Numbered from the stretch's first letter, positions 1 through 21,446 are shown. The stretch is 33,528 nt of DNA from Nemertoderma westbladi (GCA_032718475.1 JAUCBJ010002936.1:1-33528), one strand, 5' to 3'. Notes: generated from the letters alone by a model not told the origin. A program made the numbers and translations.

Positions 1-262
1 CAAATCCAAGGGGAAGTGGGGACTGGACGCAATTCACAGCGGGGGGGGTCTGGACGCAAATGCAAGGGGCGGCTGGACGCAAATCCAAGGGGAGTAGGGG
101 AGGTGGGAACTGGACGCAAATCCAAGGGGGAGAAGGGACCTGGACGCAAATCCAAGGGGGGGGATCTGGACGCAAAGCCAAGGGGGAGGGGCGACTGGAC
201 GCAAATCCAAGGGGAGGAAGGGCTGGACGCAAATCCATGGGGGAGGGACTGTACGCAAATCT
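1..262. repeat. G-rich minisatellite, unit core CTGGACGCAAATCCAAGGGGG (~23-36 bp), ~9-10 copies, runs off the window start
   Basis: The core ctggacgcaaa recurs at about 23, 50, 73, 109, 140, 166, 194, 223 and 249, each followed by G-runs. Confidence 0.9.
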
Positions 263-360
263 AATCTGAGCGAATTAATATCTCGCCTCAATGTTAAATG
301 ATCAATTTAGGGAAAAGAGCAAGTTACAGTGAACGTTATTCTAACCAAAACATTAAACTA
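249..360 (+). repeat. Dispersed repeat, copy 1 (homologous to 16297..16408)
   Basis: gcgaattaatatctcgcctcaatgttaaatgatcaatttagggaaaagagca...taaacta aligns by eye with gcgaattaatatcccgcttcaatgttaaattctcaatttagggaaaggagca...taaacta at 16318..16408. Confidence 0.85.
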
Positions 361-769
361 AAATCAAAAGAACAGGTTACAGTTTTATTAGTATTATCAA
401 ATTTCCCCTGGAGAGGGATGAATTTTGTTTGCGTCGAAAGTCCCCCCTATATCTGCAACTGGAATAGTTTGACAGTAAAACGAAGACTCACATTTGGTCT
501 GGCTGCAGGCCTATATATAACTGACAAAACACTTTTGTTAAATTTCGATAATGTAGGGCTGCTGTAGGCCTACATTTTCACAACCAAACAATTATCTATC
601 AGTAGAGTCCTTAAGTCTTAATGGGGATATAAACTATAAACATATCGTATTATTAATACGATATCAATTAATATCATTATTCATACCCCAAAGAGTAGAA
701 GCGCTGACGTTACCATAACAACAAACATAAACAATAACAATACACATAAAAAAAGAAAGGGAATTTACT

Positions 770-2410
770 TAGTAGGCCAGGCTGTTAGCACCTATATAAA
801 CCGTGTACTGATGGCGTATGTTTATGGAGGGTTGACCTGGCATTCCCGCACCGTCTTCCAACCCGAGTCCACTTCTCCACTTCGTCCTCGATCCCCTGAG
901 ACAGTGGGAAGCCCCGCGGATGACTGCCAGTTGGATCCGGGTTCTAACCCACCCCATCACGACCCCGTAGGGCCTGCGGAGTTTGTTCGCTTGGGGGGCC
1001 AAGACCCCGTCACATGACACGACAAATGGCGAGAAATCGCCACGCCGAGCCCAGACTGCATCCGAGTAGAGCCGCTTCTTTTCATCTTCGGCCGACTCGA
1101 GGACGGAGCTTGCGGGGTGGCCCACATACGACCCGGCGTCAAGGTTAACCAACCTGATGTCAATCAATGCCTGGGTCTGTGGGTTGAAAGCCCCCCTGAA
1201 TACCCACGTTGCAACGAAGACCTGAAACTCCATAGACCACCTGCAGTTCCTGAACGACTGGCTCACAAGTGACATTTCTTGGCCCGAATGCCATTGCTGC
1301 TAGGTCGCCCACAACGTCCCTGAGCTCATTCTGCCGTTGGATAACGAGACCCCCTGTGCAGAAAACGGCGGCTCGTTGCATGGTTTGGTGACATACTTGA
1401 GGCATTGTACCTCTTTGAACTCGATTTCCTCCCGAGCCAACTGTTCCACACGCCCCGTTTTCCGTGCCTTCTGCAGACAGGCGATGTGGTCCACCAATGA
1501 GAATGTTTCTTCTCCAAGGATGGCCTCACTGAGGTAGCGGGTTCCTGCCTGGGAAGTCTTAAAGGAGGGAGTAGCCTCTATGACTGGATTGCGCAGCGCA
1601 AGCAAAGCAAAGCAAGCAAGCAAAGCAAACAGTCGGCCGAAGCCGGAGGCGACCCGAAGGCTCCTCTTTCGATAGCTGCTACCCGAGGGTAGGGGTGGGC
1701 GCTACTCCTATCCCAAGATTTGCTCCCAGTTATTTAACTGGTACTCATTTTATCGACCCCAGTGGATGAAAGGCTGAGTGGACCCTGGCGGGGCTGAACC
1801 TACAACCAATAGATTGCAGGCCCGGCGCTCAACCAACTGAGCTACCCCGCCTTTTACTTGCGCAGCGCAGGCAGGCCCAATCCACCAGAGCGTGGGGATA
1901 GGGCGAACAGTTTGCATTCCTTGGTGGATATTTCGCCTCCGAGTATTGCCGGAAGGAAACGTTGTGTGATTGCTTCCTCAAGGATAGGGAACTCGTGGCT
2001 GCAGTCCAATGTGACACGCTGGAGGTAAGCCCATTCCCTCTGCAGGGAGCAGGCCATGGCTGAAAACGCAGCTTGTGGCTGTTCGGCAGCCATCTATGTC
2101 AGTCTGTCGACGGCGTCAACCCAAGCCACCTTAACCCCCACAAATGCTGCCTTATCTGATGCCTGGCCCAGAAAACCACCGAGGAATTGGTACCCCGTGA
2201 CGACATTGATGGAGTGACCCGAAAAGATCCGCTTTGCCTCCTCCATATGTGCTGGTGATACCACGAGGTAGCTCTTGAATGGTTCAGGGAAGTATCAGAG
2301 GGCTGGTACTGCTGGAACCACTTCAATATATCTTTGAGTATCCCTGCTGTAGTGGAGTCGTTGGCAAAGCAGTTCTGTCGAGTTTCTGGGGACTGGACTG
2401 TCAGGGCCCT
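770..2410 (-). mobile_element. Degenerate CRE-clade non-LTR retrotransposon, 3' half (RT YADD region, thumb, CCHC knuckle, restriction-like endonuclease)
   Basis: Minus-strand fragments: RQNCFANDSTTAG..KWFQ (decayed YADD box, ~2330-2385); SLQREWAYLQR..LFALSPRSGGLGL; CTGGLVIQRQNELRDVVGDL (knuckle); IDIRLVNLDAGSY..AEDEKKRLY..FSPFVVSCDG..RTRIQLAVIRGASHCLRGSR (RLE). Several frameshifts. Confidence 0.85.
1601..1857 (-). mobile_element. tRNA-derived SINE with conserved central domain, RTE-like 3' end and (TTGC/TTTGC)n tail; 12-bp TSD
   Basis: Minus strand begins GGCGGGGTAGCTCAGTTGGTTGAGCGCC..GTAGGTTCAGCCCCGCC (A box, degenerate B box), then CACTCAGCCTTTCATCC..GGTCGATAAAATGAGTACCAG, ending in a microsatellite tail. 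TTGCGCAGCGCA flanks it at 1589..1600 and 1858..1869. Confidence 0.9.
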
Positions 2411-2849
2411 AAACCGATTAGGTTCTCTGTTCGCAGAACACCGAACACTATTCCGGCCACGGAACTAGTCCAGCAGAATGCCTTTATAGAATCCTGGAAT
2501 TTGTGGGACGAGAGGATCTCAGCAACTAAGCGAAAACGAACAATAGGATGTTCCTAGACCCCCCCCCCAAAATTTATCCAGAAGACTTTTCGCCATACAT
2601 AATGTGTTAAAAAAGTCTACGGTTCTCCAGCTAGGGCCAATTTGAGTCAAAAAGTCCGCTTCCCTAGCAACCACGTTGCTATGGAGATAAGTCCAGAACC
2701 GCTAATGCTACGGACTTGGGACCGGCGCCAATCGATAGGCAGCATATGGGTTTACATTCAAATGAAAAAGTTGAGAGTGATCCGATCATGATCTTGACCA
2801 TGATCAGCAAAGATCAGTTTTGATCAGCAATCGGACACTCAAGGCTTGC

Positions 2850-4030
2850 TCCAATCGAAAAACTTAACATTACAAAAAGATTCAGCGACCCCACATTAGT
2901 CATGATTCCCGTTAAAAGATTTTAAAAAAAGTGAATTCTTCCCGGTCAAAACGCAAGATCATGATCGCGCAAAGATCGGACTTCGTAAAATCGTAACTAA
3001 GCATTTTGGATATAAACAATTACTGTAGGAAACGTTCAGAACACCGCCCTGAGTCGATTAAAAAAAAAATTGGCCCGATCGGACAGCCGGTTCTCGAGAT
3101 CTGATACCTGATCATTAAAGATGATATTTTTCGGTTTTTTCAAATTTTCTCGAAAACTTTGTTTGAGACCCCCGATTTTTTTTTTACGAATCGACTTCTA
3201 TGATGAAGGGGCAACTTTTGAGCATTTCGAAATTTTCAAAAAGCGATTTGATCAGGCCGCGATCAGAAAAGATCGTGTTTTCGGTTTTATTTTGAAGACC
3301 AAGTCCTGGGAGTTCACCGTATGGAAAAACTTAACATCACAAAAAGATTCCTCGCCCTCGAATTATGGGGGGTAGCCAAAATTTGGGCATAAAAAAGTTC
3401 AAGTCTAGTGGGTCAAAACTCAAGATCATGATCGCGAAAAGATCAGTATATTTAAAATCGAATCTAAGCATTTTTCTAATAAACATTCATTGTAAGAAAT
3501 GTGCAATGGTCTATTCTGAGTTGATTAAAAAAAAATTGGCTCGATCGGGCAACCAGTTCTCGAGATCAGCTTCCTGATCATAAAAGATCGTGTTTTTCAG
3601 TTTTTCCCGATTTTCTCTAAAACTTTGTTTGAGACCCCCGATTTATTTTTTACTAATCGACTTCTATTAAGAAGGGGCAACTTTTGAGCATTTCAAAATT
3701 TTCAAAAAGCGATTTGATCAGGCCATGATCAGGAAAGATCATGTTTTCGGTTTTATTTCGAAGACCAAGTCCTGTGAGTTCACCGTATGAAAAAACTTAA
3801 CATTACAAAAAGATTCCTCACCCTCGAATTCGGGGGGGTAGCCAAAATTTGACCATAAAAAGTTCAATTCTAGGGGGTCAAAAGATCATGATCGCGAAAT
3901 GATCAGTTTTTTCGAAATTACTTCTGAGCATTTTGGGGCAAAACTTTCAAACTAAAAAACATTCACTGGAGTGTTCTAAGTAGATTAAAAAAATTTCGAC
4001 TCAATAGGCCTACCGGTACCGGAGATATGG
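2850..4030. repeat. ~467-bp tandem repeat (about 2.5 diverged copies), GATC-rich
   Basis: The anchor aacttaacat(t/c)acaaaaagatt occurs at 2861, 3328 and 3794 (spacing 467, 466). The blocks aaaactttgtttgagacccc and gaaggggcaacttttgagcattt repeat at similar spacing. Confidence 0.85.
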
Positions 4031-5789
4031 TCGTCCAAAGTCTGCTTCCGGTAATTCGAAAATATTTCGAAAACCCTTGATCGAATTTTTTCCTTGAAAA
4101 TATGTGAATGTACAGTTAGTGGACCCGCATCTAACGATATATCACAATCCATATTTCGGATGATAGGTACCAGTGAAATCAGACTTTACAAAAAAAATTC
4201 AAATTTTAGCTACTCATGTCTGACTATCTCGAAAACTATAATAGGTATGGAAATACTTTCACTGCAAGAAATGTTCGCCTATCCAATGCGCTTCTAACTC
4301 TGTGCTCGGATTTTGCATAGTGTCAAAGAGCGCCAGTACTATCTTTCATTATTATGAAGTAATAAGGGCGGTGGGTGGGGTAGGTGGTGAACACTATTTA
4401 TAGGGTGGAGGGTGGGTCTAGTATATTACTTTAGGATATTTGATTTCTTTGCAATATAGTTTAGCTGCCTCAGTCTTATTTGTAATATGTTATACATTAT
4501 ACCAAATTATATCAAGTTTTAACATACTACATTGTCTACCTGTAGGAGAAATATACAATGTAGGGCTCATAATATATTTATAAATAGATTTAGTATATTT
4601 ACATTGTATAACAGAGTTAATTGATACTATTACGGTATTATACTAAAGACGCCGCTTTGATATATCTGATCAAATGGCAATTTCTTGTATATTATCATCT
4701 ATTTCACTATCTTGGGTATATCATTCAATTTCTAAAACTATAATAATAAAAATTTACTTCACTTCTTGTTTACTCGCATGGATATATTGATATAAAACAC
4801 TTCAGTATAATATCTTATAGGGCCAAACGCAGATTAATCGGAATAATATGTTTAATTATTGTTACAATTGGCACATTGAAGTAAGTAGAACATGAGTTTG
4901 ATAAAATAATTATGAATCTGTATCTTATTCTACTTTGTCTATATGATTATGTTATATAATAATGTTACTTTATCACTTTGGTTTAAACCGATCTCCTTTA
5001 CTATTACTTACTACTTATACTACTACTACTACTACTATTATTACTACTGCTACTGACTACTACAGAGTTATATATTATAAGAGGATGGGGTTCGTGATTA
5101 TTAGTTATTATACAAGTGCCCCTCGGCTATAGAGAGTCCACCCTCGGTTGCTTACTGGATCCGCCGAATTAAAGGAAGACTCCCATTATTGCGTAAAGCA
5201 TTATGGCCAGTGGGTCCCCTGGGTGATTCTCACCGAAAGTGGCCAAATAGAACTGAAATATTCCTGAAATATTCCATTGAAATCATACAAAACTATATAT
5301 ATTCTGAAAGCATTTTTTAAGGAGAATTCAATGGTGACAATCTCCGAGATGTTAGATAAAATCTTAAAGAAATTATCAAGGTAAAGTATGTGTCCTGCCT
5401 GTAATGGTTTGTCCCTCCATGTAATACGAGTTTTTAGGCTGTAAATTGCCCCTGTAATGCAATGTCCCAGCCCTGTAACAATATATTCATATATCTCTAT
5501 TGGTAGGCCTACCGTGTAATGCGATGTCCCCACATTGTAACAATATAATAGTCATGTACGTATGTATTTAGTTAATTTTTCATACATAAATTTTTAGTAA
5601 GTTTTCCGAGAAAGATAAGTTTTGTCATAATTGTGTATTATTTTTAAAAATTAATATAATCGACCACAGAAAAGAAACCAAAAACAGACAATTCCAAACT
5701 ATTCGTAAGTTGCTACAATCGCCTAGAAACAAAATTAGTTCGGACAGAGTGCATTCGAAATTCAATAAACTTCGAAATTATATAAATTT

Positions 5790-7614
5790 TTCATTCAGAC
5801 ACAATTTGGAGAGAATCAATTGAGGGGTAAAGTTCAGCATCCGAATCAAACCCTGTAAAATCTAAAATCACGTAGTCTTTCACTGCACTTGAATGCTTCA
5901 TACATAATAGTTCGCATGGTGGAAGACAAGACAATTGCTTCATGTATAATACTCCATTAAGAAAAGCAACTCATGTGCCTTACCATACCTGGGATCGGTT
6001 GTGGGGACAGGTGTTAGTAAACATTGAGCTTCATCGATCTCTGCTGTTGTATAGGTAATAAATTTTATTGTTGATCTTTCTATTAACAACTGGACAATAG
6101 TATTGACATCGTGAGTAGGAGCTGTAACGTCCATGCCAATGACAGCATCTAAGGTTCTTTTAATAGCGCCGCCGATACCGTCAACTGGCCCTTTAGCATG
6201 TCCTGCCTTGGTATAGATCCATTTAAAATTATCAAGATTTTTCTCCCTTGCGTATTTGTTAAACAAATGAATGATAAAGCGGTTGCGATATTGACTGCTT
6301 GGTGAATCTGAAATTATGACTAAATGGTGTATGTAATCTGTAACTACAACCTCTAAGACCTTGAGTACGTTTGCATATACTGCGGCTGCCTGATGATTTG
6401 TGTCAGAACTCAATGCTGCATAGCTCTGGGATTCAGAGTTTCCCTTAGTTACATACATACACTGAATCGAAGGCTGTTCTTGGCTGTAGTATGCCGAATG
6501 AATTTCTCTAGGATGAGGAATACTGAAATTTTCGCTCCAATCTATTTGGATAACGACTGTATCATTGCTCAACTTCCCGATTCGTTTGGCTTCTTTAACA
6601 GCCGAATATTGAGTTCTAAGCCGATAAATATGATCTTTAAGGCTACATAGCTCCTCTTTCAGTATCGGTCTCAACCTAGCTAATTTAAGGGTCTTAGAGA
6701 CACAGCGCCATATTCGCTTTTTATTATCCTCACTTACAATATTCTCCCACATCATAACGTTCACATCTAAAGTTGAAGGCTTTAGCTTTGCCTCAATCCA
6801 ATCTGTATTTTCATCCAAGGCCAGTTCATCTGCTTTTGAACCTCTGGGAAGTAAATCAACTTTAACTAATGATTCTATCATTAATTGTGGGTTAAGACAG
6901 TTAATACACAGACAGGTCCCCCAATCGGAAGCCTTTGGTTGAACTACATTAGGCGGCCAATATTTACAGAAGAGACTGTAGGAAAAATCTATCCCACTTT
7001 CCATCATAAATTTTTGATGAAGAACCGCACCGTAATCTGTCTGATATCGAAGAGGGACTTTCTCCTTCACGGAACCAATCTTTTCGATTACAACATATTT
7101 ATCTTTGTCTGGACAAACCTTCGAAACGCTGTCATCATTAGCAAACTCTTCGACCAATTGCTTTAATTCACTTCTTTTGTTAGAACCAATAGCGCTACGT
7201 AGCTTAGATCGAATGCGACAGCCAAGTTTCCAAAGTTTATTTAGGGTCTGATTATCACCCACTGCAAATAATTTTCGCTTTGTCCGTGGGGTTAAATTTC
7301 AGAGAGCCTGAAGGGGCATTCAGCTTTTCTTGGGAGTTGAGAGTGACTTTTCATTCTGAGCAGATTCGCTTAGGAACTTCACCAAATTTTTAAGATTCTG
7401 ATTATCTCGCTGAAGGGTACGGTTTTCGATTTCCAAGTTTAGAATCTTCTGACTTTGGCGCCTATTTTCTGTTAATCTTGTTAATCTATTCTTCGCTCTT
7501 GTCTGCAATCCGGTGTTGGACTGCCACTTTGAAGTTGATTCCCCTGATGAGGTGGTTGAAGACATCGCGATCGTTCGGGTTTCAGCCAATTGTTTACACT
7601 TAGCCCTGTATGCT
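5790..7614 (-). pseudogene. Sola-like (probably Sola2) DDD transposase, inactivated; N-terminal part cut by an LTR insertion
   Basis: Motifs IQIDWSENF..EIHSAYY, IISDSPSSQYRN and GHAKGPVDGIGGAIKR, plus CLCINCLN. ORFs 7320..7589 and 5940..7262 share a frame separated by two TGA codons. The frame is open up to 7614 (AYRAKCKQLAETR). A frameshifted C-terminus KQLSCLPPCELLCMKH lies below 5940. The superfamily call is from recalled motifs. Confidence 0.75.
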
Positions 7615-8470
7615 TGTTAGTAGTAGAGGAAGCATGGCCCTCGGCGTAAGTCCTCCCTAGCTTGGGCTATGGGCATTCCATTCGGAGGGCTATTAAAAAT
7701 GCCAAATTCCGGAGCTAAATTGCGATGCGCGCCATATGTCACCATCGGCAGTTGCCATCAACCAATCGTAGCGTAGCCTAACCTCGCGATGCCCGCCTTA
7801 CTCGACTACTGACTAACTAACTAACCCTAATGTTATTCACCTTTTCGCCACGTTACCACCACCACTGTATACTGTATATGGTGACGACGTGGCCATCTAC
7901 ACGCATCATGCATGTGACGGGATCCAGGAAGGATTCCGGTTTATCCGGTTGTTTAGTTCACGCGTCCCCGCCGTGTGTATGAAAGGTAAAAAGAGTTCGT
8001 GTCGTTCGTCGTATATAATAATCGGTTGTACGGATATATAGATATAGGGTATATAGATATAGGTATATGGATAATGTTGTGGTATACGGAAGGCGGGATA
8101 CGGTAATTAAAGTCCCGGTCCTTCCCTAGCTAAACTAACTAACCTAACTAGCACCAATATGATACTGAGATAACTGAACTGAAATGATTACTGCCAACTG
8201 GCTATATTGCACGGTTGGCCTTATTACTCTACCTAATCGATGCCTTTCCCCCCTCTGATTGGTTGATACCCTTGTTGGCGCCCTTTGGAGTGTTCCCGTT
8301 CACTCCACCTGTTCTCTCTGGGTTAGGGGTTTGGCCCCTGACCCTCATTGTGTTTCTCCTTCCCATTTTGTTGGGGTGACACGAGTTGGTGATTACCCAA
8401 TCTCGTGGCCCCCAATATTGCTTATCGGCTTAACTTTTATGGGGTGTTAGCGGGATTGAATAAGCTAACA
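7615..8470 (-). repeat. Putative 3' LTR (~856 bp)
   Basis: Inverted termini TGTTAG (7615..7620) and CTAACA (8465..8470). It directly abuts a polypurine tract, and its left end coincides with the break in the Sola transposase frame. No second LTR is in the window. Confidence 0.75.
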
Positions 8471-8480
8471 CTCCCCCCCA
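8471..8480 (-). other. Polypurine tract
   Basis: The minus strand reads TGGGGGGGAG immediately followed by TGTTAGC. Confidence 0.75.
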
Positions 8481-9189
8481 TGCTATCTTCCCGGTGAGAA
8501 GATAACATCCACCTTAAAGTGCGCTACAATCCCGCTGGATCCCGATCTAGTATCGGGTGTGGGGTGGAATTCTTTTTCTCGGAGCCGGCTTTCCAGGCCG
8601 CTCCCTATGGGTATGATAACGCTACGCTGTATGCCTGGCGTCCCATGTCGGGCCGATCGCGCTCACCTCTCACGCGACTTTTGTTTCCCCAACACTTTCG
8701 CCCTATCTCTTCTCCACTCTCACCCTAACTCTCTCATACCCTCGGACCTCCTCGTCCCTCACTCAGCCTCTTATTCTCCCCCCCCCCCCCCACACTAGAA
8801 TTGCGTCCGCACTCTCTCCGCACTTCGCACCATTACTCCATCCCTCAACCCCACTTCGACTACCTCATCCCTTCTGACGAATCTCCCCCCCCCCCCTTGT
8901 GCCGTCGCACTCAAGAAGTGTGAAATCGTCTGGTGTCTCGTCCATAGTGCCATAGTCAGTTATCCCCCCAGTCCCAGTAGCTAATTGAGAAAGGTTGCAT
9001 GACTATAGTACTTACTCCGAACGTATATTTTATTGCTAAACTACTGATCACTACGTACGTACATATAATTGCACTTATTTTAATTATTTGCATCAGCTTA
9101 GTTTGTACTTAATAGTTCGTATGTCCCACGCGGCGCCTTCCAGGCGTACCACGTCCAAGTCTCAGTTTCTCTCCCCCAGCCCTGGGAAC

Positions 9190-11736
9190 CTATCTGTTCC
9201 TCTGGGGATAGTTCCCCCTGGCGTCCTCTTCCCTGGGTCGTTTCTTGGTTACCACCGCTCCTCTGGGATCCGCTTTCTGCTTTCGGACTTTCGCCGCCAC
9301 CTCCCTGCTGATTCCGGTTGTTGGCTCCTTGGGCGCTGGTGTTATTAGTGTCCGATATCGCTTCGCCGGTGGCCCCTCAGAGTGGCCCTGTTGTCTCCCT
9401 CTGGTGGCGTCCCATAGGATCATCTTCATTGCTCGCGGAACGGGCTCCGCCAAGAAATCCCTAAACTCCCCTCAGTTCTGTGGCGTCCACCTGTCCAAAT
9501 ATCTTTGTGTGTTCATCACTCCGGCATACGACGCCGCCGTTGCTACCTCTTGATAGGTAAACGGTAGCCTCCGCTTTATGATTTCCATGTGAGCCTCCTG
9601 ATTGATAAGGAAGAAACCCCACTTGAACTCCTGGGCCTTCATGCGCTGGCGCGTCATAGCCCCGACGTCAGCCCACTCCTCGAATCTTCTGAACTTCTCT
9701 TCGTCGTCCATCCAGTCGCACTGGCGCCCGTAGTGTCCCCGAAAGTTGCACTTCGGACATCGGTTATGCAACCGTGGACACGCCCCCATCCTGTGGCTCG
9801 ACTCTCGGCAATAGAGACAAAAGGTTCCCCGTTGGAACCGGTACAAGCAGCTCCTTTCCTGGTGGGTCTGTCTCCCACAGTGGTCGCAGCCGAGTACCAA
9901 TGTCTCCCGCCCCACGTCGTCTTTCGTCCCAAGCGATCTCCGCAGTCTGTGGAGTCGCTGGTAGGCGAACTTCTCCACGTTGGTGTCCCTGTCTACGTCG
10001 ATCTCTCCGCCCCTTTCGGGCATTGTCTCCCCGAATACTATCCGTGGTGCCGTCCCCAGTTGCTCGCCCAACCTGATAGTGCTCCCCGCGAAATCCATCG
10101 CCGGATCCTCGTGCACCCAGGTCCGCTTGCCGGATCTGTTCCAGAAGGCCCTCGCCCCACTGGCCGTCACCACCCTCCCGCCAACCCAGTCCGTGTCCGA
10201 GTGGCCAATCCTCTCGATGGGCGGCACCCCTCCGAACTCGTCGTCGTCCTCCTCCTCCTCTGGCAGTGGCTCCAACCCCGGTATCCCGATGGATCCACTA
10301 TGTCCCTTCCCGCCTTGGCTCTCGCCCGTAGCTCTCCATCCCTCTAGCTCCCTTAACTTCCTTGGCGGTTGGTCACCTTCGGCGCCCGCTGGTATGGGCA
10401 TCTCTTGCAACCCCGACGTCGACTGTTTCGGTGATCCCACCGTCCATCCCAGTTCTCGCCCTAGAGACTCCCCCAAACTCCCTGACGAAGTCCAATGAAG
10501 TTCGTCTAAGCCTGCCTGTTCCTCGAAGCCGTAACTCTGCGTCCTGGCCTCCTCTTCCCTCTCATCTGCTTCTATCCTCTCCCGTCTAGCGACTTCTTCC
10601 AGTCAATTTGCATCTCGTCTATCCGTTTCTAGCTGCTCCCATCTCTGATACGGCGTATCTGTCTCCCTGTCTACCAGATGCCGGCTGTTGTAGTACACCG
10701 ACTCGCCCTTCAGCCCCGGGTGGTCTACCAGACCGTCGAAGGCCATTTTAAAGGCTCTCCTGTAGCTTAGGGGTGATCCCGATAACAGAAATGCCGCTGG
10801 TTCCCTCTTGATAACCACGGTCATAAACAAGTTAAGCAAACTTATCATCATCCAGTCTTCCTGCAGGATATATCGCTTCTGATATACCTTTATCGCTCCT
10901 CTGCGGAATTGATATACCTCTTGCTTTCCCGGTCTCGCTCCCCACTTTAGCGAGTTCGCTAGTTCTGCTCCGAATTCTTCCCTGAACTTCCCCCAGTCCA
11001 TCGGTTTGTGGCACACGAGCCCCAATAGTTGGCCCATTGCCACCGCCCCGCATTGGCCTGTGTTTTCGACTACCCCCAACCCATCCGGTGCTGTCATAGC
11101 CATAAAGACCTTCTGCATATCCAGGAGGTTGGTGGCGTCCGGACCGATGATTCTCTCCGCATCCTCGCGAATCGCCGATCCTACTTTCGTCGTCGACTTC
11201 TCTCTTACCAAGACTTGTACCACTTTCGGCAACCGGTTTAATTTCGGCCCGTCCTTCTTCCCATACGTTCCTAGATCGAATAAGAAGATGTCCCCATTTG
11301 GCGCGGCCAAATGTAGGAGTATGGTCCTGGCCGACCCCGCCGATCCTCGTCTCGAACCCGCCTCGTCTTCCACGGTTCCCTCGTCGTCTAGGATCATATA
11401 TCCTCCCCTGTTGACGGACTCTATGAATCTCTTCCAGTCCTTCCTCGGTGATTCCCTCGGGTACTTCGGAATCCCGAACTTCGCCTCGTCCCCTTTCACC
11501 ACGTAGTGGAAGTGTTGGAAGATCGCGTTGTCCAGCGACGGCGTCCCGTAGGTCCCGACCAGCCGCTGTTCGTGCATCTCCCGGAAGTGATCCTGCAGCG
11601 CCCGTGCCGCGTGACCCCTTTCCAACCTCTCGTAGTATCCTCTCGTCTTCTCTTCCGGATGCCTCTCGGTGAAATCCACCAGTATCTCCTTTCCTCCTGA
11701 CTCCGCCTTTCTCTTTCTGATCAATTTGCTCGCCAT
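9190..11736 (-). pseudogene. Retrotransposon accessory ORF (~850 codons, two in-frame TGA): DEDD 3'-5' exonuclease + 3 CCHC zinc knuckles
   Basis: ORFs 10603..11745, 9472..10476 and 9190..9453 share one frame, with gaps of 42 and 6 sense codons. Exonuclease motifs: YMILDDEG; ILLHLAAPNGDIFLFDL; LPKVVQVLVREKSTTKVGSAIREDAERI; LLDMQ; QKRYILQED. Knuckles: CDHCGRQTHQERSC, CLYCRESSHRMGAC, CPKCNFRGHYGRQC. First ATG at 11736. Confidence 0.75.
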
Positions 11737-12249
11737 TCCGAACACTCACTCGCTCACCTGTAAGGTGGTGCCTTACCAAGGCGCAATACAGATGAGTGAT
11801 GTATCTAAGATGTTCTGTACGGTCCGATAATGGCCTATTCCTTACATAACTGCGCCCTTTTAGCCTAAATTATTACTAATTAATTCTGAAGCTAGTAAAT
11901 ACACCCTAATTTCGATTTCTGTCCGTTACTTTTATTATGTTCCAGAATAACTTTCCTAGTGTTGCCATAATTTGTAACTTTCAGCCCTATTCTATTTATT
12001 TTTATCTATCTATTTATTTTTAGTTTAATTTTAATTCTACTGTCCTACTACTTACTATTGCCTATGGATTATTCTATTCTCTAATCCACATTCTGGCCTA
12101 CTCTGTGGGCCTGTGCAGTACAACAGTATGCAGTATTACAACAGTACAACAGTAGTACAACAGTATTTACCCAGCTGTACTCATATGCCCCCCTCTCGCT
12201 ACTAACTGCTAACTAATATCTATATCTTATATATACCCTTCTACCTCTT

Positions 12250-12700
12250 ACTTTCTCTCTAACTAAAGGTACTACGTACCCTCTAACTCTTACTCTCTCT
12301 CTAACTAATGGTACTACGTACCCTCTAACTCTTACTCTCTCTCTAACTGACGGTGCTATGTACCCTCTAACTCTCTAACTAACTAGCGGTACTACGTACC
12401 CTCTAACTCTCTAACTAACGGTACTACGTACCCTCTAACTCTCTAACTAACTAGCGGTACTACGTACCCTCTAACTCTCTAACTAACGGTACTACGTACC
12501 CTCTAACTCTCTAACTAACGGTACTACGTACCCTCTAACTCTCTAACCAACTAGCGGTACTACGTACCCTCTAACTCTCTAACTAACGGTACTAGGTACC
12601 TCCTAACTAACTAACTAACTGACGGTACTACGTACCTCCTAACTAACTAACTCTAGGTACTACGTACCTCTTAACTAACTTCTGCCTACTAACTGCGTAC
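12250..12700. repeat. Tandem array of ~12 units (32-41 bp), each with the hairpin GGTAC-TAC-GTACC in CTAACT-rich spacers
   Basis: ggtactacgtacc or a close variant at about 12268, 12310, 12352, 12388, 12420, 12456, 12488, 12520, 12556, 12588, 12623 and 12656. Confidence 0.9.
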
Positions 12701-12817
12701 CTACTATGTACTATTATTTTTATTTTCTATTTTTTATTTGTGTGGGAAGGGCGTCTCGCCCTCAATCCCACCCCCCTCAGTCCAAAGCTTGGACGACTAA
12801 ACTATTCTCTAACTCCA

Positions 12818-13945
12818 CTAAGGTGCCCCTTCTAACAGACAGCATTTCCCTACAGCTCTCCTGTAGGTTTTTCTGTCCTTCGCACCTATCTTACCACCTA
12901 TCCGCACTTCTACCGATCGGACTCTTCCGTCCTCATCGGAGTAAGTGCCTACAACTCTCGCCAACCGCCACTGGTTGTTGATGATAGTATCATCCGTAAC
13001 GATTACGAGATCTCCTACTCTTAACTCCCTATTCGGCTTCCTCCACTTGCTTCTTTTATGGAGCGTGGGTAGGTATTCTTCTACCCACCTCCTCCAATAC
13101 TCTGCGCTTATTGCTTTAGCGACTTTCCAACTCTGGCGGGAGTGTATGTCATCTGGGTCTACACCCCGCATATCGATGGTCGCTGGCCTTTCCATCAGAA
13201 AATGGCTAGGCATCAGCACGTCTAGTGACTCAGGGTCATCATTCTCCGGATATAGCGGTCTGCTATTAATGATCCCCTCGCACTTCGCAAGCACTGTCCG
13301 TAAGACGTCCTCAGTGACCATGTGGGTACTCATTAGCTTCGTCATTAGACGCTTTGAACTGCCCACCAGTCTCTCGACGCATCCTAGTGTATGTGGTGCA
13401 TACGGCGTCCTTCTCTCCCACTTTACTTGTCGTCGTCTCATGGCCGCCCTGACTTCCTCCCCTTCCAAGATGTCCAAGGCCTCTGCCATCTCATTCTCTG
13501 CGCCCACAAAGTTGGTGCCATTGTCGCTGTATATCACTGCGATCGTCCCACCTTTGCGGTCTCTAAACCTTTCTAAGGCATTAATGAATGCTGATGCGGT
13601 TGCATCTTGGGCGAGTTCTATCCCTACCACCCGCGTGTTGTTACATACGAAGATGATACCGTAGCGTTTCTCCGTGTGCCGCATCACCTTGATCTTTATC
13701 GGCCCGAACATGTCCACACCGCAATGCGTAAATGGCGGGTCGTGCTGTCTTACTCTACTCGCTGGTAGTGGCGCCATCTCTTGTATGGCTCGCTCCTTCT
13801 TCGCTCGTCGGCAGGTCTGGCACTGCCCCACTACCGCTTTTACCTTCTTCCTCAACTGTTTGACCCAAAAGGTCCTCCTTATCTCCGTGAGAGTTCTGTT
13901 GGTGCCCCCGTGCAATATCGACTTGTGGGAGTCCCAGATAATCTG
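12818..13945 (-). CDS. BEL/Pao integrase (HHCC, DDE core, BEL-type C-terminal domain); remnant of pol
   Basis: HKSILHGG..FWV..CQTC; MAPLPASRV..PFTHCGVDMFGP; IYSDNGTNFVGA; APHTLGCVERLV; INSRPL; YWRRWVEEYLPTL..KW..VGDLVIV..WRLARV..DGRVRSVEV. The frame is uninterrupted. Confidence 0.92.
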   Translation of the reverse strand, partial: QIIWDSHKSILHGGTNRTLTEIRRTFWVKQLRKKVKAVVGQCQTCRRAKKERAIQEMAPLPASRVRQHDPPFTHCGVDMFGPIKIKVMRHTEKRYGIIFVCNNTRVVGIELAQDATASAFINALERFRDRKGGTIAVIYSDNGTNFVGAENEMAEALDILEGEEVRAAMRRRQVKWERRTPYAPHTLGCVERLVGSSKRLMTKLMSTHMVTEDVLRTVLAKCEGIINSRPLYPENDDPESLDVLMPSHFLMERPATIDMRGVDPDDIHSRQSWKVAKAISAEYWRRWVEEYLPTLHKRSKWRKPNRELRVGDLVIVTDDTIINNQWRLARVVGTYSDEDGRVRSVEVRIGGKIGAKDRKTYRRAVGKCCLLEGAP

Positions 13946-15430
13946 GAACAGGGAGCACCGTGGCCATAGTTGACGGATGTTCCACAATGCTGCTACCCTG
14001 TTCAGCGAGTAAAAGGCATTGGAAGCATCGACTAGGAGGACACCCCATCCATCATCAGCCCACTCCTGGAAAATATCTGCCATTGTGTGGACAGCTGCCT
14101 CGACTCCTGCTGATGTGCCGGCAGAGAGTTGTTCAGCGCCACATGTCATAGTCACATCGTCACCAGTTGCTTGTGCAATGGTGCGGGCCACGATCCAATG
14201 GATGCACTCGGATATCCCGATTGGTCATACCCTGGGACATTTATCGAGGGCAATGGGCTGACTGGACAAGAGAGCCCACATTGACTTCCATGGTAGAATG
14301 GTGTTCACCATGCTGCGAGTGATTCCAGCAATGCCCTCGTGGAGGTGCTCACTGTGAGCCCCAAATCTAAGCAGGTAATCCTGCCAGCGTGTGGAATCAG
14401 ATCCGGCAGGGCCTGCTCCTCCGTGGAGATGACGGATAGCAGATTCTATGTGGGCTCCAGTTATATCAACATTGATATGTACTGGAAAGTCGCCATCATG
14501 GTCCAACAAAGACTTTGCAGGGGCTGGTGCTGCTAAGGGGTGCTTGCTTCGTAGCACTTCAAGAACACTTACTTTGCAGCCACCTTTGTCAACTTCGTCA
14601 CTGGGATCCATGACACCACCTGACTCCCAGCCAATCACCTATCGAACCATACTCCGAACTTTGCCCTCAATCATAAGGTGAGTGAACACATAGATGGTGT
14701 GTTTTCGCTCATCAGCTGGCTGGCGTCAACCGACCCTGCCCTCTTCCCAGGGCCAAACTTCAGGGAGCAGCGTTCCGCCTCCTGGAGGAAGGCTTCCAGT
14801 TGCCTGATTCTGCGGGTGAGGATGCGGTGGATGTCGGCACCTTTAATTACCTTTGGGTCATGGTGGTGGAGAAGTGAGTCTGCAAGCAGGATTCTCTCAG
14901 ACCGCATTGTGTTGTAGTGCAGATACGAAGGTCGTCATTTCCAAAGCCAGCAGTGCGACAACATCACGCCCAACATCACGGCCACCCGGTAAACGGTATT
15001 TCAAACCATTCAACTGTGTACTGCATCTCCAATGGTGTAGAAGGATGTCTGGGGAGGCCCCTTTACCAACAAGTGGCCCCATAGGCTCTTGTCATTAAAT
15101 ACCTTCTCTGCATCCGTTGGCGTAGGTACCAATGTCTCACTTAGTGAGTTGAATGAAGTTTGGCTCTCTGGGAGCCTGGGATCCGTGATATTCATTGTGT
15201 CATTTGGGGAGGAAAAGTTTATTGGGATGGGCGGTTGGGACTGGGTTGATTGCGTACGGGTATTGGGACTCGGGCTTATTGTAAATTGGTTCTTGCATCC
15301 TCCTGCAAGGAACTGCGCGCAGCTAATACAGGGATGCCGCGCTTTGTTACACCCGCATCGTCCTGATGTGCAGCAACTATAGCGAGTAATGCCACATTGG
15401 CAGCACCACTGCGATCCCTGCTGCATTCCT
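13946..15430 (-). mobile_element. Degenerate CRE-clade element, 5' half (Cys-rich N-terminus to RT motif 3)
   Basis: CCQCGITRYSCCTSGRCGCNKARHPCISC; YRLPGGRDVGR; SVLEVLRSKHP; LHGGAGPAGSD..WQDYLLRFG; IALDKCPRV; QLSAGTSAGVEAAVH; LLVDASNAFYSLNR..WPRCS. Multiple frameshifts. Confidence 0.82.
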
Positions 15431-15629
15431 CTTTAAATTCCAATCAAACGTCAGTAACAGGCAATTAATACAATATAATACATAATAAGAACGCTAGGGG
15501 GTGTGTAAGTTACTCTGTTTCATTGGGGAGGGAGGGGGGTGTATGTAAGTCTGTTCCGTCAGGTGGGGGAGGAGGGGGGGGGGGGGGGGTGTGGTGGGGT
15601 ATTAGGGACCATGGACCAACTCGTAGAGT

Positions 15630-15998
15630 CCCTTGTTGTTAGGGGTCCACGGTCCCCATAATGGAGGCCGCATTGCCGACCAGGATGGCGATTGCCAGCC
15701 TTTGCAACAGGAGGAAGTGGTGAGATCAGAGCTCCTGGGTAACAATTGGAGTCTTGCCCCGATCTCCTTCAGGAACTCGGATGTTTCTGGGCCAGGGCGG
15801 CCAAAGGTCTCGGAGGCTACCGGGTGGAAGAGGTAGCCCCAGTCCATGAGTTCCTGGTACTTGCGCATCTTTAGAGTTTCCGCTTCCTCTGCAGTGCGTC
15901 CTCCAGCGGATAGCGTCTGGGCGAGGTGGCTGGGCGCCAGTGGGTCCGCCACCGTCGCATCCCACGTGAGGAACCTCCCGCAGCTCCATGGGACCAGT
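15630..15998 (-). mobile_element. 5'-truncated CRE-type RLE endonuclease fragment (different family from 770..2410)
   Basis: LVPWSCGRFLTWDATVADPLAPSHL..AEEAETLKMRKY..LFHPVASETFG, then a shifted frame LQRLAIAILVGNAASIMGT. Confidence 0.8.
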
Positions 15999-16296
15999 AA
16001 TTTAATACAGTACTTGGGAAAAATGTAGAACCTTTTGCCACTATTCTTGTGGTAATTTATTTACCAAGTGCCAGCGAGTTTAATATACACACTAGAGTCA
16101 AGAGAATATTGAACAAATTTGCTACTGTACTGTATGTTTCCTTCCCATGTAATACGTAATTTTATTCTTATATTGGATCTTCTTGCGGCTAAATTCTTTA
16201 ATAAAATATAGAACGAAATATTGAAACAAAAGTGAAAATAGTGATCTTCAGCAAATCATAATATTATGTATGTATTATTGAAAGACAGGGGGGAAA

Positions 16297-16408
16297 CTGG
16301 ACGCAAATCCCACATTGGCGAATTAATATCCCGCTTCAATGTTAAATTCTCAATTTAGGGAAAGGAGCAGGTTCCAGTGGCACATTATTTGAACCAAAAA
16401 ATAAACTA
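16297..16408 (+). repeat. Dispersed repeat, copy 2 (one CTGGACGCAAATCC unit plus the flank seen at 249..360)
   Basis: Direct similarity to 249..360. It abuts the truncated Gypsy integrase. Confidence 0.85.
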
Positions 16409-16419
16409 TGAACACAGCG

Positions 16420-17290
16420 GACACAACGGACACCCCAGTCGGACAGGAATGACTGGACGGCGTCGGACACCAGCTGGGGCCCGTTGTCTGGACGGATAAC
16501 GGTCGGTACCGCAGTGGCCAAGAAGAGGCGGCGGAGGCAGTCGATTATTACTGGGGAGGTTGAGTTCTGGCCGAGTTTATAAAGGGTGGGCCAGCCAGTG
16601 AATTCGTCAGTCACAACAAGGTAGTTGGTGCCATCTAGGACAAATATGTCGGTGTGTACTCTTTGGAACGGGCGGGTGGCGTCCGGGTTCCGTTGGAGTG
16701 GCTCGGGTGGGTGCGATGGGAGGGCTGCCTGACAGGGTTGGCAGCGCTCGACCATCTGTTTGATGTCGTTGGGTATGGAGGGCCACCAGACGGAGCGACA
16801 CGCACTCTCCCGAGTTTTAGTGAGTCCCTGGTTGGTGGCGTGGAGTAGCCGGAGCATCTCGGGACGGAGTTCGATGGGGATATAGAGCTGGGGCCCGCGG
16901 AGAATGACGCCATCGTGCACCATCAGCTCCGAGCGGAACTGGAAGTAGGGCCGCAGCTGGTCATCGGTGATGTTGTGTTTGGACGTCGGCCAGCCGTCCC
17001 GGATGGTGGCGAGGAGCGCGCGGTACACGGGGTCGCGCTGCCCAGCCTCCCGGATCTGGTCGAGCTGCGCGTCCCGAGATTCGACCGACGGGGTGGCGGC
17101 GGACGAGGCGACGGCCGCGGAGATGGTAAACTCCCGGTCTGCGTCGTCTTCCAGAGTGAGGAGGATGTCGTCGGAGGTTGGGGAGTTCCGGGGGGCGCGG
17201 GAGAAGGCGTCGGCGATTACGTGTTTACTGCCGCGTTGGTGGCGGGCGGTGAAGTTAAAGCGCGACATCAACGTCTTTAACTTCAGCAGC
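16420..17290 (-). pseudogene. Gypsy RNase H end and integrase (truncated)
   Basis: HVIADAFSR; GWP; LLHATNQG..WWP..CQPC; RPFQRVHTDIF; RPDNGPQL. The frame runs into unrelated repeat sequence before the catalytic Glu. Confidence 0.88.
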
Positions 17291-17296
17291 CAATCG

Positions 17297-18700
17297 TTAC
17301 CGGCGGTCGTTCAGGATGGGGATCAGGGGGCTGCTATCGGTTACGAGCTCGAAGTGGCGGAGCCCGTCGAAGAAGTAGCGGCACTTGTGGGCCGCCCACG
17401 CAGTGCCGAGGGCCTCCAGTTCCGCCATCCCCGACCAGTTGGCCTCGTGTGTGGTCAGGGTGCACGAGCCGCACTGGACGGTGCACCAACGGTTGGCGTC
17501 GGAGTCCCACTGGTGGAGGTGAAACCCGAGGCCGTTCAGTCGGGAGGCGTCCGTCAGCAGCTCGGTTCGGCGGTCCGGGTGGAACCTCGACAGGTAGTGC
17601 GGACTCGACAGGGTTGACCGGGTTGCCTCGAACGCAGCCTGGTGTTGGGGGAGCCAGACCCAGGAGTTGAGGTTCGAGTTTAGCGAACGGAGCGGGTCGA
17701 CGAGTCGGGTTATCTCCGCCGTCGAGTTCCCGAGCTCCTGGGTGAGTCCGAGGAACGAGTGGAGCTGACGGCGGTTCGTCGGGACTGGGAAGTAGCGGAA
17801 GTCGTCGGAGAGGGCCGGGTCAATCCGGTAGCGGCCAAGGGAGACCAGGTAGCCGCCGAACCGGACCTCGGCCTGTTTGAACTGGACCTTTGCCGTGTTT
17901 ATGGAGATCGACGAGGCGACGCAGGCGGCCAGGATGCGGGCCACCGCCTCGGAGTGCTTCTCCGCCGTGTCGGTGTAGATAATGATGTCTTCAACGATCC
18001 TCCCGATGTTTGGGATTCCTCGGAGGGCTTTATCCATCCGGGCGTTGAAGACATCAGAGCTACCATGCCAACCCATCGGCATCCGGCGGTAGCGGAACCA
18101 GCCTCGTGGCGTCACAAAGGTGGTCAGTCGGCGACTGGAGAAGTCCAACCCGACCTGGTGGAAGCCCTTGAGGCCGTCGAGCACCGAGAAGACGCGGGCG
18201 GATGTTGGGATCCGGGAGACGACCTCGAAGGGAGTGGCGGAGTAGTAGGTGGGACGCACGGTGGCCTTATTGAGTTCCCGGAGGTCTACCATGATCCGCA
18301 CCTTGGTGGCGTCCTTCTTTTTGGTGACCACCATGGGGCTGAGCCACTCGCCGGGGTTCCGCTCGTCTGCGGCGGGCTCGAGGATTCCCATGGCAACCTG
18401 CTCGTCCAGCTCGCGGTTGAAGGCGGCCTCGAGGTTGATGGGGATGGCGTGGTTTGCGTAGGAGTTGGTGGGCCGGGCGCCCGGGTGGAGTTTGATTGTA
18501 ATATCCCCCCCGGACATTACGTGGCATTTCCCCGATAGGGGGCGGGGGAAACGCTGTTGTAGGGCCGCCCAAGCCGCAGTGTTGGTGTTGGTTGGCACCG
18601 TGGATGGCGGCGTGGGTGGTTTCGCGGGCGGCGGGGTTGCCTCCTCCCTGGGCGCCGATAGCGGTGGCGCGATCATCTGGTAGGACTGCGGGGTGCGGCC
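17297..18700 (-). pseudogene. Gypsy reverse transcriptase and RNase H
   Basis: WLSPMVV..VRIMVDLRELN; SVLDGLKGFHQ; RMPMG; IVEDIII (altered xxDD); LLTDASRLNGLG; ELEALG; VTDSSPL. Confidence 0.9.
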
Positions 18701-20093
18701 GGGGGGCGGAGGTGGGCCGTCGGAGGATCGGGCTCTGGAGGATGGCCAGCAGTAAACAGGCCTTCCTCGACAGTAGCGGCTGCTGCAGCCCATCGATGAC
18801 CCACACATCCGTGGTGCAGGCGGTGTGGAGGGTGGGGCACTGGAGGGTCGCAGTGAAGATCCGGATCACTGTCCACCCAGAGCGGCACCCGTTGGCCAGT
18901 CGCAGCGCTTTGGGGGGCGTTTGGGTGGTCTGGAGGTTCTCCATCGTCCCGCCGAAGGAGCGGAAGATGGGGAGCGGGAGCGCGGTGATGTTCGCTCCGG
19001 AGTCGGGGAGGAACTGCGCCGCTGTAATCCCAAAGTTTGGGTTCTTCGTCACCTGGAACCCGACGGTGACGGTCTCCAGAGGCTCCAGGGACTCCATAGC
19101 CGAGACGATGGGGGCGTCTTCCAGTTCGGCGCCCGCCAGGATGGACCACACCTCGGCGCGGTTCGCTGTGGTGCATGAGTCGTCAGCGGGGCCGGTGGCA
19201 GCGTGGGCGCACGGTTCGCCGGAGTTGGTCGGGCACATCCGGTCGTAGTGCCCAGTCGTGCCGCAGTGGCGGCACGTTGCCTTTATTCCCGGGCACGTCT
19301 TTCCAGCCGGGTGCAGCGTGTATCCGCACTGATGGCAGAGGGTGGGCGGTTGAAGTTGGTTGCGGCGGTTGTGGGTGCGCCGGCCTCCCGGCGTCGGAGC
19401 AGGGTGGGTCGCCACGCTGTGGGATGCGGTGGCCTTGGGGGTGGTGGTGTTGAAGGAGGCGGCATCCTTCCGCGCCGTCCAAACGGATTGGGCCCGCCTG
19501 AGAGCGTCGGAGAGGGTCGCTCCATTCTCGAGGCGGAGGAGTTGCTCCGTCACCTCGCGGTCGTTGAACCCCGCCACGAACTGGTCGAGCAACCGGTCGT
19601 TGAGGTGCGCCTCCGCGGTGGGGAGGGCGACGAACCGGCACTTTGTGGCGAGGTCGCGGAGGTGGACGAGGAACGTCTCCGGGGTTTCCTCGGGGAGTCT
19701 TTGGCGATGGGAGAGTTCCTGGCGGTGGACGCGGACGTTCGTCCCGCCGTCGATGTGGACTTCCAGTCTATCGATGACGGTGGTGGCATTACAGTTCTCC
19801 TCCGGTGTGAGGGCGAGTCCCTTGACCACAGCGTTGGTGGCGCGCGTAAAGGCAGTCATGAGGGCGGCTCGCCGTTGTCGCTGGGCAGCGCGGAGGAGGA
19901 CTGCCAATAGAGCTGGGTCGGGTTGGGCGGCGGGGTCGGCTTCGTGGAGGTTCTCCAGGCCGGAGGTGACGAGGAAGGCCTCCCATTCTTCGCGCCATAA
20001 CGCCCAGGTGAGGCGCTCGGTTTCTATGTCGAACGGGGGCGGATTACCTCGAAGAATGAAGCTTCTCGGATCGCGGTGGTCCGACATCTTCAA
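18700..20093 (-). CDS. Gypsy gag (two zinc knuckles) and aspartic protease
   Basis: LRDLATKCRF..LLDQFVAG; CHQCGYTLHPAGKTC and CRHCGTTGHYDRMC; FLPDSGANIT..PLLSRKAC. Confidence 0.88.
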
Positions 20094-20150
20094 TAGTGTT
20101 GGCAGATTGGCATTGAGTGAGTTGGGTGGTGTTGGTAGGTCGAACCTAAA

Positions 20151-20159
20151 GCTGCGTCA
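20151..20159 (-). other. Primer binding site, tRNA-Ser-like (TGACGCAGC, one mismatch from TGGCGCAGC)
   Basis: It directly follows ..TAGTCA on the minus strand, ~60 bp upstream of gag. The tRNA identity is from recall. Confidence 0.6.
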
Positions 20160-20306: not shown

Positions 20307-20744
20307 CATTCTGGAATAATATTTGTGATGAAACTAGAGAGCAGCTCAACTACATACAGTATACCAATATTGTATATTTGGCCTATTGTATGTTTGGCCA
20401 TGTACAGTCCCAATCCCAATAAACATTAACTTGGTCGTTTTGGCGGCCAAAATGACCAAAATCACCAAAAAAATGTAGTGTATTCCTATGGGCTACTTGG
20501 TCGTTTTGGCGAAGCGATTTAACTCGAATCAGCTCAATCCAGACAGTCTGTCTCCTTGGCCATCCATTTGGTGGATCTGACTAAATGTCGGCTCGCTTTC
20601 ATTTTTATTATTGACAGATTGTTAACTTACCCGGCGCTGAGCCTTGCAGTACTGGAGTCCGCCCACTGAGGCATTGATAGAGTACACAGTCTTATAAAAG
20701 GAGTTGAATGGGGCTTCGTTAAAGGAGGAGTATGTATAATAATC

Positions 20745-20965
20745 TGAACGTCCCAAAATTAATTTATGGACGTCCCGAAATTAATTTATGGACGTCCCGA
20801 AATTAACTATAGGGACGTCCCGAAATTAACTTATGGACGTCCCGAAATTAATTTATGGACGTCCCGAAATTCATTTATGGACGTCCCGAAATTAATCTAT
20901 CAACCAATCAGCATCGTAATGAAATAACTAATTAATGGACGTCCTTAAATTAATTTCGGGATGTT
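20745..20965. repeat. 21-22 bp minisatellite GGACGTCCCGAAATTAATTTAT (~7 copies) plus a partly inverted terminal copy
   Basis: Repeated acgtcccgaaattaa at 20748..20897; ttaatttcgggatgt near 20950. Confidence 0.9.
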
Positions 20966-21055
20966 AATTTCGGATATTAATTTCAATAATATTTTTTTTT
21001 ATAATAAAAATTTGTTTTAATATTTTTTTACAATGTATAATTCGCGGACACTGCG

Positions 21056-21446
21056 GGGTGACTACAAAACAAAGACCCAATTATAATGACCTCCATATTC
21101 TTGTTACATGTGTTAACTTTCGTTAATTGTTATGAATCCCCAGTCACGCCTCTGTAACTTGCTCCTTTACTAACCTGCTCCTTTGCTTTAAATAGCAATG
21201 GTACATAACGCTCATTGTGACCTGTACAAAACAAAGAGGTAAAGTCGCGTTAGGTCCCAAAGAGCTTTAGGTCCCATTGCCAGAGAGCGTGAGGTCACAT
21301 TGCCATTTAAAGGAGCAGGTTAGTAAAGAAGCAGGTTGCAGAGGCGTGTTGGGGAACCAAAACAATAAACGAAAGTTAACACATGTGTTTTGTATTTGTA
21401 CAGGTCTTTATTATTTGGGTCGTTGGTCTTTGTTTTGTAGTCACCC
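21056..21446. mobile_element. MITE, 391 bp, long imperfect TIRs, 9-bp TSD (Mutator-like)
   Basis: Termini GGGTGACTACAAAACAAAGACC / GGTCTTTGTTTTGTAGTCACCC. Inverted similarity extends ~150 bp. GACACTGCG occurs at 21047..21055 and 21447..21455. Confidence 0.9.

Follow-up and report, generated by a model that had tools for sequence, protein, structure and literature searches.

What kind of gene does a BEL/Pao retrotransposon carry behind pol when that gene is not env, and what might the element gain from it? The question is raised by a 33,528-nt stretch of DNA from Nemertoderma westbladi (GCA_032718475.1 JAUCBJ010002936.1:1-33528), which was analyzed as a whole and is called the window below. 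Its minus strand carries, at 7615..13945, a decayed copy, shortened at its 5' end, of a BEL/Pao long terminal repeat (LTR) retrotransposon of high copy number, and between the integrase and the LTR of this copy lies a long open reading frame (ORF3), which combines a DEDDy 3'-5' exonuclease domain with three CCHC zinc knuckles. The position of ORF3, its fold in the predicted model, its motifs, its co-descent with the integrase and the purifying selection acting on it are established, and, judging by the sequence comparisons, ORF3 is an old, inherited third gene of a BEL/Pao lineage. As for its role, the explanation that we favor, largely by analogy and with a confidence falling slightly short of even, is that of a factor that binds RNA, trims its 3' ends and works on the RNA of the element itself.

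ORF3 (9190..11736, minus strand, as are all features of the element) comprises 848 codons, close to the ~850 reported in the initial annotation, and is interrupted by two in-frame TGA codons. The exonuclease domain (residues ~70-330; 10747..11529), delimited by the model, structure matches, profile and residue columns, is followed by an acidic, low-complexity linker predicted to be disordered (9889..10602; predicted local distance difference test, pLDDT, mostly <50 for residues 406-611). Then come three knuckles of the form CX2CX4HX4C (9718..9888; residues 617-630, 640-653, and 660-673), a conserved unnamed domain 3' of them (9490..9705), recognized in the alignment of relatives by the motif F..AD.G..T..R...WGF, and a basic C-terminal tail of 93 codons (9193..9471), with basic tails being found in many relatives too. 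The knuckles, the acidic run and the basic patches that had been read from this frame are all there. No transmembrane stretch was found across the ORF3 frame (the top 19-residue hydropathy is 1.33), and ORF3, having no hydrophobic stretch and a nuclease fold instead, is not env, as had been proposed; the third genes of BEL elements thus need not be env.

Searches with the single sequence yielded little. Pfam gave no match (HRDC included) for the exonuclease ORF of the window, a PDB search with ORF3 gave none either, word-index protein searches retrieved no relatives, both a related-locus search of viral and metagenome contigs and a knuckle-motif scan of viral contigs returned nothing, and the structure model built from the single sequence was uninformative (pLDDT 32). 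With both stops of the frame read as X, 79 cluster representatives were found, 30 of which are full-length (535-1025 aa) and align across the N-terminal domain and the knuckle region; the full-length relatives are mostly single-ORF proteins. When built from the alignment, the model reaches high confidence for residues ~70-330 and 610-750 (exonuclease blocks mostly at pLDDT 70-94) and has a predicted DnaQ-like/DEDDy exonuclease fold, so that the fold anticipated in the initial annotation was detected in both model and profile. The motifs quoted there align as a DEDDy set: the catalytic positions are D117, E119, D192, Y289, and E293, i.e., the four acidic residues and the ExoIII Tyr of the superfamily are all present, but the last acid is Glu, a replacement of Asp shared by five other domains among the 39 with an intact catalytic set. 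DNA_pol_A_exo1 of Pfam appeared below the cut-off in 2 of 41 relatives and matched none of 35 trimmed exonuclease domains, and ORF3 defines a protein family missed by Pfam.

Structural comparison of the model gave matches to Nibbler (Z 14.9 and, for a second match, 14.7; root-mean-square deviation, rmsd, 4.2; 209 aligned), WRN (13.4), RNase D (13.3; rmsd 3.5; 183 aligned), TbRND, the RNase D of Trypanosoma brucei (13.0), EXD1 (12.6), Rrp6 (12.5), and Egalitarian (12.3), with those to Rrp6 and RNase D stopping at residue ~342. Such Z values, obtained with a predicted model, are common to the whole DEDDy group and single out no subfamily. The profile of the whole family matched EXD2 (4e-13), TbRND (2e-7, in both its nuclease and its knuckle parts), WRN (3e-7), Egalitarian (3e-4), and mut-7 (0.08), and the exonuclease-only profile (35 rows) gave an E-value of 3e-14 for EXD2, the next nuclease being WRN at 0.12. 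The window's own exonuclease domain matched a profile of 74 relatives built without its row at E 3e-20, a score beyond chance. The assignment to the RNase D/Rrp6/WRN/MUT-7 family therefore holds for the fold, but among cellular proteins it is EXD2, rather than Rrp6 or MUT-7, that comes nearest in sequence. For the knuckles and the C-terminal domain, a profile found no PDB sequence at E<=1 and fold searches gave no structural assignment, the results being filled by the nuclease domain. The knuckle ligand columns are kept in 135-141 of 141 domains, the first His excepted (77 His, 50 Cys), in a set whose locus rows were selected by the knuckle motif, and a loose pattern applied without a control found a basic patch in 26 of 28 full-length relatives. 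One relative (P0001) carries the knuckle and C-terminal module in duplicate. An origin of the ORF3 knuckles by duplication of those of gag was considered and left unsupported (0 of 15 profile matches to the gag knuckles of the elements).

Upstream of ORF3 in the window, the 3' end of pol (12818..13945, integrase stop at 12818) matches in Pfam DUF5641, the C-terminal domain of BEL integrases (E 1e-24), together with Integrase_H2C2 and rve, which bears out the BEL/Pao assignment. It is separated from ORF3 by a 1.08-kb non-coding spacer (11737..12817) with tandem repeats of 32-42 bp at 12237-12674, and an AG at 11759-11758, just ahead of the ORF3 ATG, can be read from the sequence as a possible splice acceptor. 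Downstream, the polypurine tract and LTR placed initially at 8480..7615 are both present, with the boundary corrected: the tract occupies 8471..8490 and adjoins an 856-bp 3' LTR with the ends TGTTAG...CTAACA (7615..8470). The extent 7615..13945 covers no more than the 3'-terminal 6.3 kb of the element, the remaining gag-pol, the 5' LTR and a target-site duplication being absent from the window copy. The integrase frame runs at ~13945 into a reverse transcriptase fragment that does not belong to it, and the read depth drops at this point. Contigs from three DNA runs (two studies) cover 7857-13917 at a summed depth of ~7,600-201,000, compared with only 56-73 at 14469-15019, beyond this junction; on the other side, the contigs of the flanking element end at 7618 in three runs and the depth climbs steeply inside the LTR. 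Contig depth, which is high over ORF3 and integrase alike, is not a copy count, but it shows that the family is very abundant and where the element ends on either side. In a sequencing run of a second organism (X6, possibly of RNA), short low-depth pieces of LTR, ORF3, and integrase fall on window positions 8293-13785, and as they are ~87-97% identical, a close family is present in another species.

Loci of more distant relatives were collected by scanning metagenome contigs with a degenerate knuckle motif, which gave at least 120 loci, 80 of them with flanks; knuckle conservation in these loci is given by construction, and the independent tests are the nuclease domain and the neighboring genes. 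Among the listed loci, 118 of 120 match the family profile, 52 of the 57 with at least 1.8 kb upstream have the nuclease domain (both parts in one ORF in 42), and 35 of the 39 with at least 3.5 kb upstream have BEL pol there on the same strand. Long flanking ORFs matched Peptidase_A17 or DUF5641 of Pfam in 25 of 29 cases (26 rows if the halves of L057 are counted separately). At locus L023, pol and a decayed ORF3 stand between 797-bp LTRs that are 95% identical; two LTRs were also seen at L022 and partly at L013, and in six contigs of 9-10 kb the two ends overlap, so that each can be closed as a circle. The relatives have a single gag-pol with the BEL domain order (triple-knuckle gag, protease, RT, Peptidase_A17/RNase H, integrase). 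All of the 15 gag-pol frames compared retain the gag knuckles and the DAS motif of RNase H, so ORF3 replaces neither.

Trees of integrase and ORF3 were compared for the window and 24 loci in which the integrase, the nuclease, and the knuckles are all present. The two sets of distances agree (Mantel 0.823, reached by 0 of 2000 permutations). Of the 13 supported splits in the integrase tree, 11 are also present in that of ORF3, and 14 of 16 are shared in the opposite direction, with one conflict. The ratio of nonsynonymous to synonymous substitution rates (dN/dS) is 0.03-0.21 for the exonuclease (16 pairs) and 0.02-0.25 for the knuckle region (18 pairs). Because of this congruence and these low ratios, ORF3 is an inherited third gene and not a nested element or a host fragment. 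That it might be a passenger without any role for the retrotransposon, i.e., a captured piece of a host gene or a separate nested element, is highly improbable: such an origin would accommodate the two stops of the window copy, the 4 of 39 listed loci with long upstream DNA that show no BEL pol, and locus L022, which has LTRs and ORF3 without detectable pol, but it is contradicted by the fixed position, the congruent trees, dN/dS far below 1, and the high multi-copy depth over ORF3 and integrase. Neither outcome feared in the initial annotation was found, as in the relatives ORF3 travels with BEL pol inside LTRs and, instead of a decaying single-copy host fragment, it is a multi-copy gene under purifying selection. 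The element at L022 (5187-10931), LTR-bounded and 5.7 kb long, has a 396-codon ORF and an ORF3 split by one in-frame stop, and is possibly a non-autonomous derivative retaining ORF3.

The nuclease activity itself is not universal in the family. In a quick tree of 73 non-redundant nuclease domains, the catalytic set is intact in 39, 5 keep ExoI only and 29 have lost ExoI, and 22 of these 29 form one clade (Shimodaira-Hasegawa-like approximate likelihood ratio test, SH-aLRT, 89). Five exonuclease pairs inside this catalytically dead clade have dN/dS of 0.03-0.21, and by this measure it remains under purifying selection. As one large clade has lost the catalytic acids and kept the domain, RNA binding is likely the core job of ORF3 and catalysis an add-on. 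The same observation makes it improbable that ORF3 is a DNA-directed helper, i.e., a 3'-5' exonuclease that would proofread reverse transcription or trim cDNA ends before integration in the manner of WRN or EXD2. CCHC knuckles are generally known to bind single-stranded DNA too, no sequences match better than those of EXD2 and WRN, and EXD2 was reported to be active on both DNA and RNA (PMC6648332); a purely catalytic job, however, leaves unexplained both the 29 of 73 domains without ExoI and the dead pairs still under selection. Most BEL elements, moreover, are generally known to replicate without such a gene.

Junctions between pol and ORF3 offer a hint as to how the product might be delivered. 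The pol end is in view in 33 relatives, and the pol stop is TGA-C in 13 of them; ORF3 follows in frame without any further stop in 9 of these 13 (L007, L029, L031, L034, L065, L068, L069, L076, and L080) versus 1 of the 20 others, L021, in which the stop is TGA-G. The open spacers measure 414-795 nt, with a chance probability of <=0.02 each. These sequences suggest that the TGA-C junctions with in-frame ORF3 are candidates for programmed readthrough, which would give a Gag-Pol-ORF3 product. A C after UGA has been described as a readthrough signal, and the ORF3 of SIRE1 as expressed by stop suppression (PMC2194720).

The long co-descent, the likely fusion to Gag-Pol and the selection on dead domains are our reasons for placing the role of ORF3 on the element's own ribonucleoprotein. 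In the mechanism that we propose, the knuckles would grip single-stranded RNA and pass its 3' ends, via the flexible linker, to the nuclease, comparably to the zinc-finger domain of TbRND; in that enzyme the zinc fingers were found to raise RNA binding and cleavage, and deletion of their domain to cripple both (PMC7797062). The ORF3 protein would join the ribonucleoprotein or particle of the element, being delivered by readthrough of the pol stop in some sub-lineages and from a separate, probably spliced message in the window's family, and would there trim or shield RNA 3' ends, whether of genomic RNA, primer tRNA, or small RNAs paired to element RNA.

Several points weigh against this explanation. 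RNA as the substrate is suggested by the knuckles and by analogy, and EXD2 was shown to cut DNA as well as RNA, depending on the metal (PMC6648332); co-descent, in turn, reveals that the element benefits but not what ORF3 acts on. The cases of possible readthrough come from two related groups only (the dead clade, and L029 with L076) and are not independent, the open spacer is under weak protein-level constraint (ratio of nonsynonymous to synonymous differences, pN/pS, ~0.5-0.65), and in the window's family pol and ORF3 are not fused but kept apart by a long non-coding spacer. The pairs used for dN/dS overlap in their members. The window, at most 23% identical to any relative, stands on a long branch and in no starred group of the exonuclease tree, and its own ORF3 copy is broken by two stops.

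How animal retrotransposons evade or put up with small-RNA silencing is for the most part an unsettled question, and not many counter-factors encoded by the elements are known. It is possible, although we hold it doubtful, that ORF3 acts in trans against silencing by degrading or mis-trimming host piRNAs or siRNAs, with the dead versions serving as decoys of Nibbler, EXD1, or Egalitarian. These three are among the top structural matches, the family of the host element is very abundant, the basic patch recurs in the relatives, and TbRND, which has the same architecture, was reported to deplete small guide RNAs on overexpression (PMC7797062); a silencing role, with the parallel of dead EXD1 and Maelstrom, was also raised by Rodriguez et al. 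(PMC5408684). On the other hand, the Z values are not specific to silencing factors, and by sequence EXD2 is far ahead. For a factor of use to every element alike, one would expect loss or exchange, whereas ORF3 descends with the integrase, and its likely fusion to pol speaks for a place in the particle. Rather unlikely, too, is a combined picture of a BEL/Pao lineage with its own small-RNA counter-defence, in which a knuckle-guided exonuclease would strip or mis-trim piRNAs and tRNA fragments paired to element RNA, would be packaged with Gag-Pol by readthrough in some branches, and would act in the dead branch as a decoy resembling EXD1 or Egalitarian. The family offers dozens of intact ORF3 genes under selection, with active and dead versions both provided by nature, so that the function of exonuclease ORF3s, a question that the study of rotifers did not settle (PMC5408684), becomes directly testable.

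As regards the two TGA codons of the window copy, the first (codon 378; 10603..10605) lies 3' of the exonuclease domain and is followed by C, and the second is codon 755 (9472..9474). Within 9440-10640, no indel reaches 15% among the other copies. The window copy looks decayed, because 16 of the 18 listed sites at which most copies differ from it have A/T here and G/C elsewhere, and of the seven such sites that fall within the knuckles' region, six leave the amino acid unchanged. Past the second TGA, a loose end from run X1 differs at five positions over nine codons, every one of them synonymous as read by eye, and the tail is therefore coding in the family. Neither TGA is among the 40 listed of 131 variant rows, though near-universal copy differences appear there, so both may be common to some copies, through recurrent decay or programmed readthrough. 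Since no stable RNA structure lies 3' of either TGA (z +0.6 and +2.1) and most relatives are single ORFs, we consider decay the probable origin of both. A variant genetic code was dropped, as the frame of the host's succinate dehydrogenase flavoprotein (SDHA) gene in the window terminates with TGA.

Some relatives depart from the common architecture. The knuckle module occurs without a detectable exonuclease domain at L047 (3341-6529), L059 (6880-9648), and L061, the first two being BEL elements. ORF3 has ~900 extra N-terminal residues, with no Pfam match, at L051 (5002-9657, minus strand), L005 (40-4815, minus), and L043 (1226-5476, plus), and L051 carries downstream an additional 1589-codon ORF (1-4767, minus), also without a Pfam match.

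The remainder of the window holds several other features. Next to the LTR, a 452-codon transposase-like ORF without a Pfam match lies at 5940-7298 (minus strand), and contigs of this transposase-like element end at 7618, where the BEL LTR starts. Fragments of a non-LTR retrotransposon, without a Pfam match and presumably CRE-like by their motifs, are found at 13946-16060 and 769-1701 (both minus), and a separate, frameshifted LTR retrotransposon with a gypsy-like domain order (zf-CCHC, RVT_1, RNase H-like, rve) occupies 16342-20156 (minus). The SDHA gene mentioned above (28563-30554, plus) is intronless and at most 80% identical to the listed animal proteins, with arthropods at the head of the named matches, which marks the host as an animal. 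Inverted repeats resembling miniature inverted-repeat transposable elements, short tandem arrays and a 467-bp repeat were noted at 21049-21453, 20715-20964, 31463-31902, and 2854-4026.

Exonuclease ORF3s as such are already known from rotifers. Rodriguez et al. (2017) described DEDDy ORF3s in Juno, Vesta, and Athena/Terminons of bdelloid rotifers, presenting them as unreported in retrotransposons before (PMC5408684), and the case is cited in PMC5718144 and PMC6338049, whereas the accessible text of PMC554778 lists env for Tas and Cer7 and mentions no exonuclease. Our literature search, to which Repbase, GyDB, older nematode papers, and supplements did not belong, found no BEL element with an EXD2-like, triple-knuckle gene of this kind, and the ORF3 described here is apparently an undescribed accessory gene family of a BEL/Pao lineage. 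It resembles the ORF3 of Juno and Vesta in being an RNase D-like DEDDy exonuclease encoded as a non-env gene downstream of pol (PMC5408684). The difference, as far as the description in that paper allows comparison, is that ORF3 here belongs to a BEL/Pao element and joins its nuclease to three CCHC knuckles and to a domain not seen before, while for the rotifer proteins the text names a Cys-His-Cys motif in Vesta2/5 but no CCHC knuckles, and the catalytic motif is DEED. The rotifer genes are, furthermore, reported to show no significant departure from neutrality intragenomically, in contrast to the strong selection between families found here.

Other known systems share single traits with ORF3. 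SIRE1 of soybean also has an ORF behind pol after one in-frame stop (PMC2194720), as do 10 of the 33 relatives, but it is a Copia-type plant element with an env-like ORF, and the candidate readthrough considered here is absent from the window's family. Nibbler/MUT-7, EXD1, and Egalitarian have the same fold (Z 12-15), and EXD1 is described as a catalytically dead, RNA-binding version (PMC5408684), like the dead ORF3 clade; they are, however, host genes without knuckles, and their sequence matches are weak (Egalitarian 3e-4, mut-7 0.08). EXD2 (PDB 6k17), by profile scores alone and over ExoI-ExoII only, stands far ahead of all other sequences matched by the exonuclease profile, but it has an N-terminal membrane anchor and forms a domain-swapped dimer (PMC6648332), whereas the window protein lacks a membrane stretch and has knuckles. 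TbRND (PDB 7c42, 7c45) is built in the same way, with an N-terminal DEDDy domain and C-terminal CCHC zinc fingers; it ranked first in Foldseek and, as no more than a lead, among Atlas clusters too (score 0.86). TbRND differs in being a cellular enzyme of mitochondria, in having four zinc-finger motifs and in lacking a long linker, and the fusion of nuclease and knuckles in TbRND and in ORF3 is likely a case of convergence.

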